Notes under the pieces: generated by a model
Told to the model about the DNA's origin: nothing
The model's database searches: none
The model's input: the letters and a program-made list of their open reading frames with translations, nothing else
In this document: positions 16,220 through 23,703 of the stretch, piece by piece
Layout: every line of letters begins with the position of its first letter
Numbering within the stretch: position 1 is the first letter of the stretch
Position numbers and translations under genes: made by a program
Virus genome (UHGV): UHGV-0105281
Length of the DNA stretch: 23,753 nt
From: a virus
Reading direction: 5' to 3' (one strand)

Positions 16220-17599
16220 ATGGCTACGTGGCAACAGGGTATTAATTCTGGTGGTTTTCTGGCTGGAATTGGTGCGCAAAATGAGAATGCGCCAAAGGCA
16301 AGCGACATTAACGCAACGCTTGGTCTGATTCGCGAAAACAATGAACTGGCTCGATCAGGTGCAAATAACGTTGCTCTGACAGGTCTTCGTGGTCTGGCTG
16401 GAGTTGCTGATATTTATAAGCAGCAGCAACAGCAGGAGCGTAAAGCGGCATTCCAGAAAGGTTATGCGGATGCTTATGCGTCCGGCGACAGGGAGCAGAT
16501 GCGTAATCTTATTACAGCATTCCCCGAAGAGTTTGAGGAAGTCCGTAAAGGCATGGGGTATGTCGATGACGCCCAGCGGGATGATTTTGGCAATCTGGCG
16601 CTTAAGGCTCAGGTCGCTTCGTCGCTTGGTCCGGGTGCATTTGGCAGGTTCATGATGGATAACGAAAATGAGATGCGTCGTTTAGGTATCCCTCCAGAAA
16701 CTATTGCGGAAATGCAGGTTAATGACCCGCAGGGCTTCCAGCACTTCACAGGTAATCTGGCACTATTTTCTCTCGGTCATGAGAAGTACTTCGATATCAA
16801 AGATCGAATGGAGGGGCGTCGACTTGAAGGAGAAAGAAATCAGTTAACTGCTCGTGGTCAGGATATCACGATGCGCGGTCAGGATTTATCTGCTGCTACT
16901 GCACGGAGAGGTCAGGATTTAGCGATGCAGAGAGCATCAATGAAAGGGGCTGTTGGTAATAATGAGCGCACAGTTCAACTAGCAGACGGAAGAACTGTAA
17001 CCGTAGGCGGGAAGCTTCATGGTGCAGGTGCTAACGCGTTCTACGAAGGAATAGACAATGAGGGGAACATGGTTCGCGTTCCTGCTGGCTCTATTGCTGC
17101 TCCGGCCACGTCGGCAGCAAGCGCGCAGAATTACGCAATGAAGAAAGATCTTGATGCAATTTCTGGCGCATCAATTGACGATCTTGGCTTCATGACTGGC
17201 ATTACAGGCTCTTCAGGTTCTCCTGCTCTTGGTGCAGATATTCGTAGCCGTGCCTCTGGTGGTGATCAGAGGAAACTATACAACGCTGCACAGCGAATCC
17301 AAGGAAAGATGCAGAATCAGGGCATTGCAGCAGCCAGAGACATGGGGGCATCTGGTATCAACACCGTTGCAGAAGCAAAGATGTATTTTCAAGGTATGCC
17401 ACAGGTTGATTTCTCAAGCCCTGAAGCACTACAACAATCAATGCGCGACATTCAGCAATATACCGACAATTACAACCAGCAATATAACGTTAATGTCGGT
17501 AATGGCGGGAAGAAATCATCAAGGCAACAGCCAGCTACTCAGCAATCAGCAGGAGGTAGCTACACGTCAAAATCAGGCATTCAATTTACGGTGGAATGA
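16220..17599 (+). CDS. Ejection protein, gp20-like
   Basis: 459 aa in the gp20 position. Confidence 0.8.
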
Positions 17600-19425
17600 T
17601 GAAAGTAACTGCAAACGGTAAGACATTTACCTTTCCTGATGGTACGAGCACCGAAGATATTGGCACCGCCATTGATGAGTATTTTGCTGGTCAGGCTGTT
17701 CAGCAACAAACAGTTAATCAGGCCAATAATGCACCAACACAGGAAGAACCATCATTGATGCAACAAGCTGGCGATTGGCTCACTGGTGGTCAAAGTGCAG
17801 GGCAAATTGCAGAACAGGCTGGTCGTGGTCTGGTAAACATACCATTTGACGTATTGCAGGGTGGCGCAAGTCTGATTAATGCAATCAGCCAGGGGCTTGG
17901 TGGTCACAAGGTTTTGGACGATGTCTATCGTCCAGTAGATCGACCAACAGACCCTTATGCGCAAGCTGGAGAAACAATTGGCGGGTATTTAGTTCCAGGA
18001 GTTGGAACTGCAGGAAGCATGGCTATTGGATCACTGGCAGAAGCCGCAAACCAGAAAGGCGATTTCGCGCAAAATGCAGCCATAAACGCCGGAGTTAACC
18101 TTGCTGCTCAGGGTGTTCTTTCCGCAGCAGCAAAGGGAATAGGGCGTGGAATAACGGCTATAAAAGGCGATATCGCGCCAGAAGTAGCGAAAAAAATTGC
18201 CACCTCAGAATCGATGGGCGTGACACCAATGACATCTGATGTTATCCCGCCGAAAAATGCTTTCACTCGCGGCCTAACTCAGGATGCCGAGGGGGCTTTG
18301 CTCGGGACAGGCTCAAAGCGAGCTGAGCAGTATGCAAAAAGAAGTCAGCTAGTTAAAAAACAGCTTGAGAAATATGGTGAATATAGCCCATCAGTTGTTG
18401 TTGACGATCTGTATGGTTCTCTGAAGTCAAGGAAGGATTCGGCCGGAAGCGTTATTGAAGACATTACAGCCAAAATGGGAGACACACCAGTTGACACATC
18501 AAAATCTATTAAGGTTATCGACAACGTACTTACCAGAGCTAATAGGCTTGGGAAAGTGGCAAATAAGGATTTGATTCGCGGGTTATCCGATTTGCGAGAA
18601 GAACTTGCTAAACCAGATATAGATTTTGGTCTATTGAGAGAGTTGCGGTCAGCCTTGAGGGAAAGTATTCAGGGAGATGCCATGGTTTTTCCTAATAGCG
18701 CGAAAGCCGCAACTGATACCGTGGAGAGGGCAATGGGGGCAGATTTGAGGAATAACGCAGCGCGGTATTTGGGGGCTGGAGAGGCCGCCAGATACGTCAA
18801 GGCAAACTCTGACTACTCTAACGTCTTCAATAAGGTTCTTAATAAAAGGATTGCGAATAATCTCAACAAAGCTAAAAAAGAGTTTACTCCAGAGCTAATA
18901 AACAGTGTTGTATTCAGCAGAAAACCATCAGATATTAAGAGGATATGGCCAGCTCTTAGTGAAGATGGAAAGAACGCTATGCGTGCTGCTTATATCAGCA
19001 AGATTGCAGAAAAAGCAGGAGACTCGCCAACAAAATTTCTTACCGAGTTAAATAAGTTGAAGTCGCAATCTGACGGTCAGATCTATAACACGATATTCAG
19101 TGGGAGACACATGAAAGAGCTTGATGCTCTTCATGAAGTTCTACAGCAAACAGCAAGGTCGGACGCCGCAAATGTAGTAACACAGACAGGACAATCGCAA
19201 GCCAACAGGATAAGGACGATTGGCGCAACTGCGACTCTTGGCGTATCAATGGGGCTTGAGGCTGGTTTCGGTGCAATGATGCGCTTGTATGAGTCAAAAG
19301 CAGCAAGGAATGCTCTCTTACGTTTGGCAAACACCAAAGCAGGAACGCCAGCCTATGAAAGAGCATTAAGTAACGCTGCAAATGCCATCAGACCGCTGCT
19401 TGCCACTGAGGCAACACAGCAGTGA
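17596..19425 (+). CDS. Ejection protein, gp16-like
   Basis: 609 aa, same length as P22 gp16; ATGA overlap with gp20. Confidence 0.8.
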
Positions 19426-19442
19426 CTAAATGCCATGGATGG

Positions 19443-19631
19443 TTATTTCCTTAGCACATGAAACAATGTTTGCTTTAATTCCACCCATACAATTATGACC
19501 ACTATAGACAGACAAAAGAAACTGAATGCATTGGCATCACGATCGAAACCTTCTCCGGCACTAAATCCGTAAAAGGTCATAAAAAATATAAAAATTGCGC
19601 ACTTTGCAACGTTTACAAATTTTTTCTTCAC
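19443..19631 (-). CDS. Small 2-TM membrane protein (62 aa), downstream of the S24 repressor in the same operon
   Basis: GTG start preceded by a perfect AAGGAGG Shine-Dalgarno on the minus strand; two hydrophobic helices. Confidence 0.55.
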   Translation of the reverse strand: MKKKFVNVAKCAIFIFFMTFYGFSAGEGFDRDANAFSFFCLSIVVIIVWVELKQTLFHVLRK

Positions 19632-19691
19632 ACCAACCTCCTTAGTTTTGAGCAGGATACCAGATGATAATGTGTCGCTTCCTAAAGGATA

Positions 19692-20333
19692 TCAAAGCAA
19701 CGGGATTTCAAGGTAAACTGCGGTTGCCAAAATACTAACATCTTCATTTCTAACAAGAATATTAGGATACATTGGGTTTAGGGATACTAGGTTTGTCTCT
19801 ATTTCACCAATGTAAACCTGTTTGAAGCTCAATATTTGCTCTTTATCCAATGATGCTATTACATAATCTTTGCTTTTAGCTTTTACTAGAGGGCTGAACG
19901 TGACAACCGATCCTCTGGGAAAGCTAATACCTGAACTTGTAGTCATAGCTTCACCTTCAATAGTCAATGCAAATGCAGAGTCACCAACATTGTATATTGC
20001 CGGATGAAATCTAGACGATGAATGTTCACCTGTGTTTAGGTAATGCATAACTTCATCTAGTTTGAGGATTGGTATTTGCTTTACCAGAACGTCAGGCATG
20101 ACGTTTTTTGTTCCCGGACCCTGACCTTCACCTAGAGCTAACCACTCAGCTGTAGTACCTAATGCGTTGGCTAATGCCTGCAATACCCGAAGCCGTGGTT
20201 TAGCCTCACCACCCTCGTATGCAGCTATTTGACGTTGAACAACACCAGCTAATTTTGACAACTGCGCCTGCGTCATACCCCTGGACTGTCTTGCCAGAGA
20301 TACTCTTGATGGGAATTGATCGTCAAAATTCAT
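19692..20333 (-). CDS. CI/LexA-like repressor (N-terminal HTH, C-terminal S24 peptidase fold) with Ser-to-Ala at the nucleophile position
   Basis: N-terminal HTH (GMTQAQLSKLAGVVQRQIAAYEGG); C-terminal S24-like region in which FALTIEGEAM aligns with LexA FLLRVSGMSM, placing Ala where the catalytic Ser sits (codon GCT confirmed in DNA); the Lys of the dyad is retained (SFKQV). Confidence 0.8.
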   Translation of the reverse strand: MNFDDQFPSRVSLARQSRGMTQAQLSKLAGVVQRQIAAYEGGEAKPRLRVLQALANALGTTAEWLALGEGQGPGTKNVMPDVLVKQIPILKLDEVMHYLNTGEHSSSRFHPAIYNVGDSAFALTIEGEAMTTSSGISFPRGSVVTFSPLVKAKSKDYVIASLDKEQILSFKQVYIGEIETNLVSLNPMYPNILVRNEDVSILATAVYLEIPLL

Positions 20334-20354
20334 TAGTTCACCATAAAAAATTCA

Positions 20355-20383
20355 TTGACTCATGCTGAGTGTGAGTGAATAAT
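20355..20383 (+). promoter_or_regulatory. Rightward promoter (TTGACT, 17-bp spacer, AATAAT) with overlapping operator-like palindrome and TGAGT repeats
   Basis: Promoter hexamers read directly; palindrome ACTCA-TGC-TGAGT at 20358-20370 and tandem TGAGTG at 20366-20377. Confidence 0.4.
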
Positions 20384-20432
20384 CAAACTACAAAAAGTGA
20401 GATTATGAGTTTTTTAAAAACAGGAGTGCATA

Positions 20433-20606
20433 ATGACTGAAAAGATATCTTCCATCAAGCCGCGTCAGGTTCGTTTTACAGAAAAGGTTGATTCACATAT
20501 CCGCGAATCAGCAAAAAGATGCCATAGGTCAATTCAGGCAGAGATAGCTTATCGAATGGAGTTATTGATGAAACTTGAGGCAAAGGGCGATGTTGTCATC
20601 CAATAA
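20433..20606 (+). CDS. Arc/Mnt-family ribbon-helix-helix regulator (57 aa)
   Basis: Not in the ORF track (under 60 aa). AGGAG RBS 6 nt upstream; PRQVRFTEKVDSHIRESAKRCHRSIQAEIAYRMELL parallels Arc PQFNLRWPREVLDLVRKVAEENGRSVNSEIYQRVMESF. Confidence 0.6.
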   Translation: MTEKISSIKPRQVRFTEKVDSHIRESAKRCHRSIQAEIAYRMELLMKLEAKGDVVIQ

Positions 20607-20679: not shown

Positions 20680-21306
20680 ATGAATATTGTAGCAAAATCA
20701 GATTACAACTTCCACGGAGTTGAGTTGGTGCCCACCCGTGATATGCATGGTGTTTGGTTTACATCATCTAATATTGCATCTGCACTTAAATACGCAAATA
20801 GTCGTGCAGTAACAATGATTTATAACAAGTATAGCGATGAGTTTAGCGCCGGAATGACTCAGGTACTCGAAGTGAGTACCTCAGGAAATTATCGCAAAAA
20901 AGTGCGAGTTTTCTCACTACGCGGTGCCCACCTAATCGCGATGTTTGCTCGCACTCCGGTAGCCAAAGAGTTCCGCCGCTGGGTGCTGGATATTTTGGAT
21001 CGGCAGGCAGAATGCTCACCGATTGCAAAACAGTTTACTGACGAAGAACTGGTTAATCTCTGCTACTTACAATTGTGGATGGAGAAGAGTCAACAAATGT
21101 GCAAACACATCTACCCAGGAATGAAGCAAATTGGTTCTGAGCTTTCAGGAAGGATTTACGATATTGCATATGAGACTCGCTACATGTCAGAAGAAACCAA
21201 GAAATCACTTCTTCGTGAAATGAAGAATCTTGATACCAACAATTTTGTCGTAAAGAACGCTCAGCCAATGCTGGCAAAACTTCGCGGCGAGGAATGGATT
21301 CATTGA
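20680..21306 (+). CDS. Bro-N domain antirepressor-like protein
   Basis: 208 aa from ATG 20680 (AAGGA RBS); Bro-N-like N-terminus (FHGVELVPTRDMHGVWFTSSNIASALKY...SLRGAHLIAMFARTPVAKEFRRWVLDIL). The ORF-track start at 20575 overlaps the RHH gene. Confidence 0.7.
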   Translation: MNIVAKSDYNFHGVELVPTRDMHGVWFTSSNIASALKYANSRAVTMIYNKYSDEFSAGMTQVLEVSTSGNYRKKVRVFSLRGAHLIAMFARTPVAKEFRRWVLDILDRQAECSPIAKQFTDEELVNLCYLQLWMEKSQQMCKHIYPGMKQIGSELSGRIYDIAYETRYMSEETKKSLLREMKNLDTNNFVVKNAQPMLAKLRGEEWIH

Positions 21307-21321
21307 TTGGTGCGCCGGACT

Positions 21322-21400
21322 GCGCAAAAAGAAAACCGCCAGTGTGCTGCTGGCGGCCTATGTCACACCCTTACTACCACATAAGGAATGCCTAATGACT
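21322..21400 (-). ncRNA. Predicted sar-like antisense sRNA covering the RBS and start codon of the downstream Ant-like gene
   Basis: Minus-strand promoter inside the start of the Ant-like gene (-35 GTGACA at 21430-21435, 17-bp spacer, -10 TACATT at 21407-21412) and a minus-strand intrinsic terminator (hairpin 21336-21356 followed by a T-run at 21322-21335). Confidence 0.3.
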
Positions 21401-22123
21401 TTTAAGAATGTAGCAAACATCGGATCCGTTGTCACGGATAAAACCATTGATAGCCAGTACCTGTTAGAGATGGTCAATCATGCTCGTAGACAGTGCGGGG
21501 AAAAAGAAGTCCGAAATAACGACTTTATTGCACGCATTAAGGATGAACTTGAAGGTGAGCACTACGAAATTTTCGTAGTTCAAAAATCAAACAAGACAAC
21601 TTCTGAAAAAGTTGTTATGTCAATTAAGCAAGCCCTTCGAGTGGCTGCTCGTGAATCTAAAGCTGTTCGCCGCTCACTTGTAGACCAACTTGAAAGTATG
21701 CAAGAAGCGCACATTAAAAGCGGTAAATCGTCGAGTGGACTTGTTGAGTATCGCCAGGCGCGAACATTGAAAATGACGGTTGAAGCTGTTACCAATCTGT
21801 TCGATTTGATGCCAAATCTTGCGCCGGAAGCAAAGCAGACTGCGGCAGCAAGCATAATCAACCCGATCGTTGGTTTTAATGCAATACCTCTTCCAGCAAT
21901 AGAAGAGCATTACTACTCAGCAGGGGAGGTTGCAGAGCAGCTTGGAGTAACGGCCAACAAGATTGGTCGCATTGCTAACGCAAACAACCTCAAAACTGAG
22001 CAGTACGGGAAGTTCTTCCTGGATAAATCTGCACATTCCAGCAAACAGGTGGAAGCATTCCGCTACAATGCGGAAGGTGTTAAAGCTCTACAACACCTGA
22101 TTCATGGGAGTAATGTTGCATAA
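21395..22123 (+). CDS. Ant-like antirepressor (Rha/AntA-like N-terminus with KilA-C-like C-terminus)
   Basis: 242 aa from ATG 21395 (AAGGA RBS); N-terminal region resembles the pRha pattern and the C-terminal region resembles KilA-C (YYSAGEVAEQLGVTANKIGRIANANNLKTEQYGKFF). Confidence 0.55.
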   Translation: MTFKNVANIGSVVTDKTIDSQYLLEMVNHARRQCGEKEVRNNDFIARIKDELEGEHYEIFVVQKSNKTTSEKVVMSIKQALRVAARESKAVRRSLVDQLESMQEAHIKSGKSSSGLVEYRQARTLKMTVEAVTNLFDLMPNLAPEAKQTAAASIINPIVGFNAIPLPAIEEHYYSAGEVAEQLGVTANKIGRIANANNLKTEQYGKFFLDKSAHSSKQVEAFRYNAEGVKALQHLIHGSNVA

Positions 22124-22344
22124 TGGCAAAGAAAAAATATGGCATTATGCCGCCAAGAATCAAAGGAAGAGCCAGGGTAAAAGGCGATGCTGGGAGGTAT
22201 CACATTCTTGGAGTTCTGTGGCATGAGAGAGCTTTAATTTTAAGTAGACCTCATGGGTACATTGAAAAGGTATCTATAGATAGAGTAGAGATTCTTCCCC
22301 TTACACCTGAAGAAGAAGAAACGTACGGACTTTTTGATAACTAA
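22123..22344 (+). CDS. Hypothetical small basic protein (73 aa)
   Basis: TAATG-coupled to the upstream gene and followed by a strong terminator. Confidence 0.5.
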   Translation: MAKKKYGIMPPRIKGRARVKGDAGRYHILGVLWHERALILSRPHGYIEKVSIDRVEILPLTPEEEETYGLFDN

Positions 22345-22350
22345 CCAACT

Positions 22351-22378
22351 AAACCCGCTTAATCGCGGGTTTTTTATA
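22351..22378 (+). terminator. Strong hairpin terminator between convergent operons
   Basis: aaacccgc-ttaat-gcgggttt hairpin followed by ttttt; A-run on the 5' side gives partial bidirectionality. Confidence 0.7.
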
Positions 22379-22400: not shown

Positions 22401-22937
22401 TCAAACAACCCACCAGTTTGCCTGATTGGATACCAGCCTTGCAGTTTTTATGGAATTAATTATGCCATGCTCAAGAGCCTTGTTAGCATCCAAAATGGTC
22501 GAGTCTGCTATCAGGGATGCCCACCTAATATGGGTTCCGATGTCGATATTGAACGTCTCAACGAAGCGATCAAGATCGTTATCGAGGCATTTCCCGTACT
22601 CTCTCAATCTGGCATGGTCGGCGGCTGGGGAGGCAAAGCACCATAATAGAGGATGTAACAGGAATCTTGATAATGGGTTTGCGAAACGTTCTGAGCCAGC
22701 CAGGAAAACGATATTAGCTATGGATTCAACATTGCTTATGTTGTGAGTTCTAACGGTAACAGGGAGTGACTTAAGAAAGTTATACGCAGTAAAGCCAGCG
22801 GCTGTTTCCCCTCCCTGACTTGATATATGGATATTTAATTCAGTTGCGCCTTGAGATAATGCGGTGAGACAGTGGTTCTGAAGTTGCCCAACAGTGGCGG
22901 TGTTAACGGGGCATAAGAAATGAATTGTGTGCAGCAT
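22401..22937 (-). CDS. ClpP-fold (peptidase S14-like) serine protease, translationally coupled to mnt
   Basis: 178 aa; aligns by eye with E. coli ClpP over the catalytic core, with Ser (VESIANIVFLAG), His (FLLHPLL) and Asp (ADSTIL) all present; its ATG overlaps the mnt stop (TAATG). Confidence 0.7.
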   Translation of the reverse strand: MLHTIHFLCPVNTATVGQLQNHCLTALSQGATELNIHISSQGGETAAGFTAYNFLKSLPVTVRTHNISNVESIANIVFLAGSERFANPLSRFLLHPLLWCFASPAADHARLREYGKCLDNDLDRFVETFNIDIGTHIRWASLIADSTILDANKALEHGIINSIKTARLVSNQANWWVV

Positions 22938-23191
22938 TATTTATCATCCTTGCCATAAATCTTTTTAAGTGTCTCAAACACAACAGTCTTGAACTGCTCT
23001 GCTTGCTGATCAGCCAAGCGTTCAGCTTCGTCTCGATAGCCTGCAATCGGTGATGGTTCAGATAACGCCTTCTGTACGATCTGAACTAGTTCAGAATTGA
23101 TAGACCGACCATTCATTTTTGCCCTTTGGTCTAACTTTGCTTTTAACTCTGCTGGAAGGCGCAACTTAAATTGTGGGTCTTCTCTGGACAT
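22937..23191 (-). CDS. mnt: Mnt repressor (ribbon-helix-helix)
   Basis: 84 aa; MSREDPQFKLRLPAELKAKLDQRAKMNGRSINSELVQIVQKALSEPSPIAGYRDEAERLADQQ closely matches my recollection of P22 Mnt. Confidence 0.85.
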   Translation of the reverse strand: MSREDPQFKLRLPAELKAKLDQRAKMNGRSINSELVQIVQKALSEPSPIAGYRDEAERLADQQAEQFKTVVFETLKKIYGKDDK

Positions 23192-23210
23192 TTTATCACC
23201 ATGTTTTTTC

Positions 23211-23262
23211 TTGACAGTCTATAACGGTGATAGTACATTCTCAATTGAACCACGGTGGTTCA
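23211..23262 (+). promoter_or_regulatory. Pant-like promoter with candidate Arc operator in the spacer and Mnt-type 17-bp palindromic operator at the transcript start
   Basis: TTGACA (23211-23216), 17-bp spacer containing CTAT-aacggtg-ATAG, -10 TACATT (23234-23239), palindrome TGAACCAC-G-GTGGTTCA at 23246-23262. Confidence 0.6.
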
Positions 23263-23278
23263 TTGATTGGGAGAGGGT

Positions 23279-23437
23279 ATGCAAGGTGCAAGAAAAATGC
23301 CGCAGTTTAATTTGCGGATGCCTAAAGAAGTATTGGATTTGGTGCGCAAGGTAGCCAAAGAGAATGAGCGATCTGTTAACTCTGAGATTTACAAGCGAGT
23401 ATTGGACAGCCTGAAGAGGGAGGGGGTAATGGTATGA
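23279..23437 (+). CDS. arc: Arc repressor (ribbon-helix-helix)
   Basis: 52 aa, not in the ORF track; MQGARKMPQFNLRMPKEVLDLVRKVAKENERSVNSEIYKRVLDSLKREG closely matches my recollection of P22 Arc; GGGAGAGGG RBS. Confidence 0.85.
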   Translation: MQGARKMPQFNLRMPKEVLDLVRKVAKENERSVNSEIYKRVLDSLKREGVMV

Positions 23438-23703
23438 GGGTGTCATTGCTTGATCGTTCTTTACAATTTTTGTCTGGCGCAATCATTGTGGTTTGCTTGC
23501 TTGTGATTTTTACAGCGCTAATCAATATGTATCAATCAGGGGAACGATTGACAAAGACGATAGAGGAAAAGAAATCAGTCTCAAATTACGAAGTATCACA
23601 TGCACATAACGATTTAGTAGAAAGCCTTGACCGTATTAACAAGAGGCTTGACGAGACAAATATGCTACTTAAGCAAATTCAAAATGAAGTGGAAAAACGT
23701 TGA
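23434..23703 (+). CDS. Membrane-anchored coiled-coil protein (89 aa) in the position ant occupies in P22
   Basis: ATGA overlap with the arc stop; N-terminal TM helix (FLSGAIIVVCLLVIFTALINMY) and a charged helical C-terminus. Confidence 0.55.
   Translation: MRVSLLDRSLQFLSGAIIVVCLLVIFTALINMYQSGERLTKTIEEKKSVSNYEVSHAHNDLVESLDRINKRLDETNMLLKQIQNEVEKR

Follow-up and report, generated by a model that had tools for sequence, protein, structure and literature searches.

The DNA analysed here, which we call the window (23,753 nucleotides), comes from a P22-like (Lederbergvirus) phage or prophage, of which it covers the nin-to-late region. Among sequenced phages, Escherichia phage JEP4 is closest, with 98% identity across the region. 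Table 1 lists the genes and features of interest. They are located in the interval between gene 16 and the tailspike gene, i.e. at the site known as the ant moron or immI region of P22-like phages. The 3' end of the gene-16 homologue is near-identical in JEP4, UPF_BP1 and Emek, where the gene is annotated as DNA transfer protein or gp16. On the right-hand side the homology of the module with JEP4 and the E. coli prophages stops at about position 22375; in these genomes the same module is followed by mnt and then by the tailspike gene. The same 3-kb module occurs in 23 of 5,426 complete E. coli genomes with an identity of 98-99.6%, and the repressor/antirepressor module is conserved in JEP4 and in Salmonella as well. 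The ant moron is the most fluid part of the late operon in P22-like phages and often carries degraded genes (PMC2629481; the region is also treated in PMC8022706). The layout in the window is that of this already described, highly variable region (PMC2629481, PMC8022706). The initial annotation of this DNA had proposed a second repressor system in the late region of the phage; the position between gene 16 and the tailspike gene bears this out.

Table 1. Genes and control elements in and around the ant moron of the window.
Feature	Position	Strand	Remarks
Gene-16-position DNA-ejection protein, 609 aa	17596-19425	+	Left boundary of the ant moron
62-aa two-TM protein gene	19443-19631	-	RBS 19637-19643; last in the leftward unit; convergent on gene 16
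213-aa CI/LexA-like repressor	19692-20333	-	HTH_3, linker and S24-fold C-terminal domain
99-bp divergent control region	20334-20432	.	Rightward sigma-70-like promoter and candidate operators
RHH57, 57-aa RHH-like protein	20433-20606	+	First gene of the rightward operon; phrog_10182, E 2e-37
208-aa antirepressor, Bro-N and P22_AR_C	20680-21306	+	P22_AR_C E 4.6e-14, Bro-N E 2e-10; phrog_245 'anti-repressor Ant', E 2e-53
242-aa second antirepressor-family protein	21395-22123	+	Same operon; phrog_1726 'anti-repressor', E 2e-100
73-aa protein	22123-22344	+	Last gene of the rightward operon; phrog_4977, E 5e-54
Canonical Mnt/Arc pair	22937-23437		2.6 kb to the right; true Mnt homologue at 22937-23191

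The 213-aa protein had been described as a repressor with an HTH and an S24 peptidase fold, and this description is confirmed by domain and structure comparisons. Two Pfam families matched above their curated cut-offs, namely HTH_3 (PF01381, E 9e-13) at residues 14-65 and Peptidase_S24 (PF00717, E 1.3e-12) at residues 108-206. The protein can be divided into an HTH_3 domain (residues ~8-67), a linker (68-107) and an S24-fold C-terminal domain (CTD; 108-213). An AlphaFold2 model with a mean pLDDT of 86.5 has a five-helix N-domain with pLDDT values of 83-90. A Foldseek search with this model returned lambda CI as the best match (3bdn, E 2e-11), followed by LexA and UmuD'; the CTD superimposes on that of lambda CI (1f39) with an rmsd of 1.8 A over 98 columns. 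The sequence search with phmmer also matched the protein to the 434 repressor (E 4e-6).

The catalytic residues were located by alignment. With phmmer, 'IEGEAMTT' of the 213-aa protein stands opposite 'VEGNSMTA' of the lambda CI structures and 'SFKQV' opposite 'TFKKL'; a MAFFT alignment with lambda CI and LexA resulted in the same catalytic columns. The nucleophile position, which is Ser149 in lambda CI and Ser119 in LexA, is occupied by Ala129, and neither the phmmer nor the MAFFT alignment placed a Ser in this column. The replacement of the catalytic Ser by Ala, as proposed from the first reading of the sequence, is hence upheld. Its codon had been reported as GCT at 19947-19949 on the + strand; the coordinates are correct, while the strand is not, since GCT is read on the coding (-) strand and the + strand has AGC at this place. 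The general-base Lys of the dyad is retained, again as first described: Lys171 (codon AAA, 19821-19823) falls into the column of lambda K192 (LexA K156) in both the phmmer and the MAFFT alignment. The GxxM motif is kept too. Residues 66-110, which include the linker and were read directly, contain no Ala-Gly or Cys-Gly dipeptide. The segment opposite 'VQAGMF' of lambda is 'KLDEVMHY' in the MAFFT alignment, which is less certain in the linker than in the catalytic motifs, and the AlphaFold2 model has a helix (residues 92-101, pLDDT ~90) at the place where the cleavage loop is expected. Judged by its sequence, the 213-aa protein is an S24-fold non-peptidase homologue, in which two defining features of an active S24 peptidase are missing. 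Because the nucleophile Ser and the scissile bond are both absent, the repressor is predicted to be insensitive to RecA-stimulated self-cleavage. The same prediction was made in the initial annotation, and Ala129 together with a linker devoid of a scissile dipeptide speaks in favor of it.

An exhaustive HMMER search of 1.84 billion representatives yielded 121 well-aligned two-domain relatives of the repressor. The nucleophile column contains Ser in 90 and Ala in 24 of them (12 Ala/Lys and 12 Ala/Arg); the combination Ser/Arg occurs in 15 cases. By this count the exchange of Ser for Ala, with about 20% of the relatives, is not rare in this protein group. In the immediate family of 22 clusters, Ala is found in the window and in P0001, P0002, P0004, P0005 and P0022, while all the others have Ser; among the latter is P0003, which is 81% identical to the repressor of the window. 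A neighbour-joining tree without bootstrap support suggests at least five independent origins of Ala. In the same tree Ala looks ancestral in the clade of the window, and P0003 would be a possible reversion. All codons examined for Ser are TCN and those for Ala are GCT, which is one nucleotide step apart; within one clade the Ser and Ala forms interchange by TCT/GCT. In the family alignment an Ala-Gly is present at the aligned cleavage position only in P0016, and on this ground the sequences of the family show a gradient of loss of the self-cleavage apparatus. A catalytic or RecA-related role may nonetheless exist in the family, because Lys171 is retained and most relatives keep Ser/Lys.

A comparison of the window repressor with that of P0005, both of which carry Ala, revealed saturated synonymous sites and a dN of 0.24 in the CTD; a ratio is not computable for this pair because dS is saturated. 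The combination of saturated synonymous sites with a low dN in the CTD indicates, at the level of sequence evolution, that the Ser-less domain is old and functional; it is under purifying selection and not decaying.

The genomic context of the repressor was compared in ten loci, namely the window, L006, L008, L009, L012, L013, L014, L015, L020 and L022. These loci comprise, in addition to the window, the contexts of six homologues with 42-81% identity and three loci, which were met while tracing the small ORF described below. In 10/10 loci the HTH-S24 gene is divergent from an antirepressor operon, and this holds for backbones as different as the P22-like ant moron, a lambda-like tail-gene cluster and an integrase-adjacent site. 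The antirepressor domains, which are found opposite the HTH-S24 gene, are Bro-N, P22_AR_N and P22_AR_C. Gene calling placed a small gene before the antirepressor in five of the six homologous loci; it encodes 57 aa, or 67 aa in L012. The corresponding protein of the window, RHH57, is weakly RHH-like: its Pfam matches to ParD_like (E 8e-4) and Arc (E 0.011) are both below the curated cut-offs, and its best match in the PDB is the Arc-family protein AmrZ (E 0.8). We infer that it is an analogue of Arc. RHH57 is 39% identical to the copy in L014, and the repressors of the two loci are 48% identical; in this comparison RHH57 co-varies with the repressor. The gene of the 208-aa antirepressor, the start of which was taken from the RefSeq annotation of an identical prophage gene, has 94% nucleotide identity to a gene annotated as Ant in Salmonella phage SPN3UB. 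The 242-aa protein, which follows it, has no match in Pfam; its slot is occupied by pRha, ORF6N or unassigned proteins in L006, L013, L015 and L022.

In SPN3UB the same Ant gene is paired with a Mnt-like/Arc-like cassette instead of HTH-S24, which argues that the control cassette is interchangeable. A swap of the maintenance repressor alone was considered and rejected, since the Arc-like 57-aa protein of SPN3UB is not homologous to RHH57. As far as these sequences tell, the whole control cassette is swapped and HTH-S24/RHH57 is interchangeable with Mnt/Arc. Our search of the literature found no paper describing the HTH-S24/RHH57 cassette, an HTH-S24 repressor in ant morons or the regulation of JEP4.

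The fact that a divergent antirepressor operon is present at every locus examined points to the repressor as the keeper of the antirepressor, like Mnt in P22. By analogy, the 213-aa protein is probably best read as a Mnt analogue, which controls the antirepressor. The initial annotation had argued that a repressor of this kind has to be relieved in a different way, for example by an antirepressor; with the gene divergent from an antirepressor operon in all ten loci, this logic is probably reversed. P22 Mnt undergoes no SOS-driven inactivation and has no derepression route, and if the repressor is a Mnt analogue, no extra derepression route is required.

The control region between the two divergent units contains a rightward sigma-70-like promoter with 10/12 matches in a promoter scan (TTGACT at 20355-20360, a spacer of 17 nt and AATAAT at 20378-20383). 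The -35 hexamer is overlapped by a conserved ATTGACTCAT (20354-20363). In 8 of 9 loci both promoter hexamers are preserved together with TGAGTCAAT, some 29 nt 5' of the repressor ATG. An inverted copy, ATGAGT, is present at 20405-20410, and a palindrome ACTCA-TGC-TGAGT at 20358-20370; we consider ATTGACTCAT, the ACTCAT/ATGAGT repeats and the palindrome as candidate operators. Copies of ACTCAT/ATGAGT are conserved, but their spacing varies from 38 to 48 bp across the loci. Conservation does not extend to the second half-site, and no more than 3 of 7 loci have the local palindrome. The remainder of the window shows no enrichment of ATTGACTCAT. A scan of the whole window for the LexA box (CTGT-N8-ACAG with 1 mismatch) gave a count at chance level and no site in the control region. 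No promoter for the repressor itself passed the scan in 20334-20432.

The closest known system is immI of P22 (Mnt-Arc-Ant; Villafane et al. 2008, PMC2629481). Both are situated between gene 16 and the tailspike gene. In both, a maintenance repressor is read leftward, away from a rightward operon for a small RHH-like protein and a P22_AR_C antirepressor, and extra lysogen-expressed genes are found between the repressor and gene 16, which is the place of sieA in P22. They differ in that RHH57 has no significant similarity to Arc at the Pfam cut-offs, in that the operon contains two antirepressor-family genes, and in that the window has a separate canonical Mnt/Arc pair further to the right. A test for the Mnt feature found a maintenance repressor built from HTH_3 and S24 and not an RHH Mnt. 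The module would work like P22 immI, but because of this different repressor it is not a strict member. With lambda CI, P22 C2 and LexA the repressor shares the two-domain architecture and fold, the GxxM motif and the general-base Lys. Unlike these proteins it has Ala at the nucleophile position and no Ala-Gly/Cys-Gly bond; its gene lies outside the primary immunity region, and its predicted target is the antirepressor promoter and not the lytic early promoters.

A further comparison can be made with prophages in which an antirepressor is under the control of a cleavable protein. In Fels-1 (FsoR/FsoA) and in the case of the LexA-controlled antirepressors of Gifsy, 186 and N15, the cleavable controller ties the release of the antirepressor to SOS (Lemire et al. 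2011, PMC3121763). The present module resembles FsoR-FsoA of Fels-1 in that an antirepressor is held off by a CI/LexA-type repressor (PMC3121763). In contrast to FsoR or LexA, the controller here has no nucleophile, which predicts uncoupling from SOS. The Gifsy repressors are short HTH-only proteins, whereas the present one is a Ser-less S24 protein.

The second gene of the leftward unit had been described as a same-strand gene for a 62-aa membrane protein with two helices and an AAGGAGG RBS. We could confirm the RBS (19637-19643), which is separated by a 5-nt spacer from a GTG start at 19629-19631, and the two hydrophobic segments, which extend over residues ~5-25 and 33-52; the protein also has a conserved GEGF(D/N)RD loop. 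The length of exactly 62 codons recurs in 8 further loci, which belong to Salmonella and Serratia-type prophages and have 77-81% identity. The pairwise dN/dS values are 0.17-0.42, the RBS is kept across the loci, and the protein matches phrog_21338 (E 5e-45). By its conserved length, the dN/dS values and the kept RBS the ORF is a real gene. It has no match in Pfam. A tblastn search of the phage collection with the 62-aa protein (E <= 0.01) resulted in hits only to JEP4, phiv205-1 and UPF_BP1 and in none to SieA, and PADLOC gave generic HTH matches only, with no assignment to a defence system. SieA of P22 is an inner-membrane protein for superinfection exclusion, which blocks the gp16/gp20 ejection conduit (Leavitt et al. 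2024, PMC10883804). The 62-aa gene can be likened to sieA in that it encodes a membrane protein and adjoins gene 16 on the leftward, lysogen-expressed strand. It is different in size (62 aa versus ~19 kDa for tagged SieA), and no sequence similarity between the two was detected.

The repressor stop and the start of the 62-aa gene lie 60 nt apart on one strand, with no terminator detected in the gap. A search for RNA structure or a terminator between and after the two leftward genes also found nothing (z-score -0.69). Here the 62-aa gene is probably co-transcribed with the repressor, in agreement with the operon that had been proposed from the gene order. A sequence on the - strand (TTGATA-17-CATTAT, 19695-19667) was rejected as promoter of the small ORF; it is weak, overlaps the repressor stop and lies outside the conserved block. 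Conservation extends over only ~38 nt 5' of the start, and for this reason the 62-aa gene looks like a separate, promoter-less mosaic cassette, which is transcribed from whichever leftward gene precedes it. The gene is always the last leftward gene and convergent on gene 16. Its upstream neighbour is the repressor, a 286-aa Ser-bearing relative, a Mnt-like, a Rap1a-like or a 161-aa protein, with upstream gaps as short as 9-32 nt. UPF_BP1 and phiv205-1 contain the 62-aa gene at 95-97% identity and both are without the repressor; in Emek the slot is filled by another ORF, of 129 aa, with the same RBS before it. Conversely, L006, L008, L009, L012, L013 and L014, one of which is a P22-like ant moron, have a convergent gene directly after the repressor homologue and no 62-aa ORF; repressor homologues outside the P22-like phages have no 62-aa gene downstream.

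These data bear on the view, suggested by the initial annotation, that the repressor is joined to the 62-aa protein in a dedicated unit of two genes, either for exclusion or immunity or as a toxin-antitoxin-like pair. The view can draw on the common strand, the 60-nt gap with no terminator and the strong RBS, on the correspondence of the position to that of sieA in P22 (PMC2629481, PMC10883804), and on the fact that the adjacency is repeated in L020 and L022. However, each gene occurs without the other: the 62-aa gene is found in two phages without the repressor and also stands behind Mnt-like, Rap1a-like and 161-aa genes, and six repressor homologues are without the 62-aa ORF. Considering also the other cargo in the same slot of Emek and the PADLOC result, a dedicated pair appears highly improbable. 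It is hardly credible that the module is a decaying remnant in which the change from Ser to Ala is a plain loss of function. Ant morons are in high genetic flux and often include degraded genes (PMC2629481), yet every ORF of this module is intact, and JEP4, Salmonella and 23 complete E. coli genomes share it with 98-99.6% conservation; the Ala-bearing proteins, which keep a low dN at synonymous saturation, largely refute such a scenario.

Two other explanations concern the way in which the repressor is relieved. A repressor, which according to the alignment cannot cleave itself, might be a lysogeny or immunity repressor that is inactivated by an antirepressor, e.g. the adjacent Ant, with the result of a positive-feedback switch. 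Two antirepressor-family proteins are encoded only 350-1100 bp away, and antirepressors are able to act on non-cognate CI-type repressors (PMC3121763). We consider this unlikely, since Ant is itself downstream of the most plausible target promoter of the repressor, so that another trigger would still be needed, and since nothing links the repressor to lytic promoters. A normal cleavable C2 is present in JEP4 alongside the same module, and Mnt, which fills this genomic role in P22, does without an inactivation route. It is also quite improbable that the repressor still responds to SOS or another signal in a non-canonical manner, be it by trans cleavage through another S24 protein, by degradation after binding of RecA* or by a CTD that serves as a sensor of a ligand or protein. 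The retention of Lys171 and GxxM, the strong purifying selection on the CTD and the interchange of Ser and Ala forms by one nucleotide (TCT/GCT) in one clade would fit such a response. In the case of UmuD, cleavage can be intermolecular. But the linker is free of Ala-Gly and Cys-Gly, the model has the confidently predicted helix in place of a cleavage loop, and a role in dimerisation alone accounts for the purifying selection.

With a probability of about 0.62 we favor the interpretation that the 213-aa protein is the maintenance repressor of an immI-like secondary-immunity module in the ant moron of a P22-like prophage. Its HTH_3 domain would bind to one or more operators in the 99-bp region, which overlap the promoter at 20355-20383; this promoter would drive the operon for RHH57, Ant, the second antirepressor-like protein and the 73-aa protein. 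The assignment of the repressor to this promoter is inferred from adjacency, with the canonical Mnt/Arc pair 2.6 kb to the right. The S24-fold CTD would serve only for dimerisation and cooperativity, like the CTD of lambda CI. A repressor from which both the nucleophile and the scissile bond are absent would escape self-cleavage on RecA filaments, and the antirepressors would stay off in the lysogen even during SOS. Induction would then fall to the primary cleavable C2-type repressor, the gene of which lies outside this window; the C2 protein of JEP4, a phage carrying the same module, has the canonical 'SAG', 'GDSM' and 'FKK'. As in P22, Ant would be made transiently by the infecting genome before the repressor accumulates, and RHH57 would act as an Arc-like shut-off. 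The HTH-S24 protein would thus be a non-orthologous replacement of Mnt. The 62-aa gene, as a separate cassette that is widely shared, would take its transcription from the upstream leftward gene expressed in the lysogen, which is the repressor in the present case.

A wider reading, which we offer only tentatively and think rather unlikely as a whole, is that HTH-S24/RHH57 is a distinct and widespread alternative to Mnt/Arc in the control of trans-acting antirepressors, in which lineages switch between an SOS-cleavable and a non-cleavable state; separately, the ubiquitous 62-aa protein could be a new minimal exclusion factor. The cleavable state would be characterized by Ser/Lys plus Ala-Gly, as for example in P0016, and the non-cleavable state by Ala or by a change from Lys to Arg. 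In some lineages the switch would be made by a single TCT/GCT change, as in P0003 versus its Ala-bearing clade. The 62-aa membrane protein could act as an exclusion factor on the conduit of ejection proteins.

The control of an antirepressor by a CI-type protein has a precedent in Fels-1; a Ser-less CI-like version in the place of Mnt is a modest new variant and not a new kind of system. The results are relevant for annotation, in that the labels 'LexA family' or 'repressor C2' are given even though about 1 in 5 relatives cannot be a peptidase, and in that a conserved gene for a 62-aa membrane protein beside gene 16 is routinely missed. If the favored interpretation is correct, the control cassettes of secondary-immunity modules exist in at least two types that can replace each other, Mnt/Arc and HTH-S24/RHH57. 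The second, CI-like type would then have lost its protease chemistry repeatedly, and its members would provide a natural series on antirepressor release that is tied or not tied to SOS. The coupling or uncoupling of antirepressor release and SOS bears on the cross-talk between prophages in polylysogens; if the switching is true, the cross-induction of co-resident prophages would be coupled to or uncoupled from DNA damage.

To the right of the S24 repressor module, the window contains a second, canonical control cassette of the Mnt/Arc kind (22401-23703). This region corresponds to phiv205-1 and EC.P3 rather than to JEP4, the nearest sequenced phage. The entire arrangement between 17000 and 23753 was found in no complete E. 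coli genome.

Features of the second control cassette
Feature	Position in window	Strand
ClpP/S49-like gene, 178 aa, downstream of mnt	22401-22937	-
Mnt	22937-23191	-
Arc	23267-23437	+
TM ORF, 89 aa, overlapping the arc stop	23434-23703	+

The 609-aa protein encoded at the gene-16 position (17596-19425) gave no Pfam match at E ≤ 0.1, Phage_P22_gp16 (PF26808) included; this same model matches its counterparts in the compared loci L013 and L015-L017. The gp16 genes which adjoin the 62-aa two-TM ORF are of several unrelated types, with lengths from 329 to 786 aa. The slot 3' of gene 16 (19426-19669 in the window; 3626-4100 in L004, phage Emek) behaves as a site of cargo exchange. The cargo in Emek is a 129-aa ORF with a signal peptide, annotated as Sf6 gp38-like and unrelated to the 62-aa ORF; its flanks are identical to those of the latter, and this identity extends to the AAGGAGG RBS and to GTG AAG, the two initial codons. 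The conserved 62-aa gene (19443-19631) is without annotation in all four records inspected (JEP4, UPF_BP1, phiv205-1 and RefSeq E. coli prophages). The JEP4 record places the start of the repressor downstream, which results in a protein of 189 aa named 'repressor protein C2'. An identical E. coli protein carries the PGAP name 'LexA family transcriptional regulator' despite the absent nucleophile.

The exhaustive representative search also returned five putative proteins of 640-1927 aa (P0038, P0039, P0040, P0065 and P0071) with 7-11 tandem HTH copies, closely related to the N-domain of the repressor (E down to 9e-68). These may be real poly-HTH proteins or artefacts of assembly or gene calling. 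Family members of 260-290 aa have an additional C-terminal helical extension, which is absent from the 213-aa repressor of the window. Alignments A1 and A4 of the repressor family suggest that its members have a common operator specificity, because the N-terminal arm is invariant (M1, F3, D4, F7, R10) and the recognition region 'GVVQRQIAAYEGGEAKPR' is nearly so, down to 40% overall identity.
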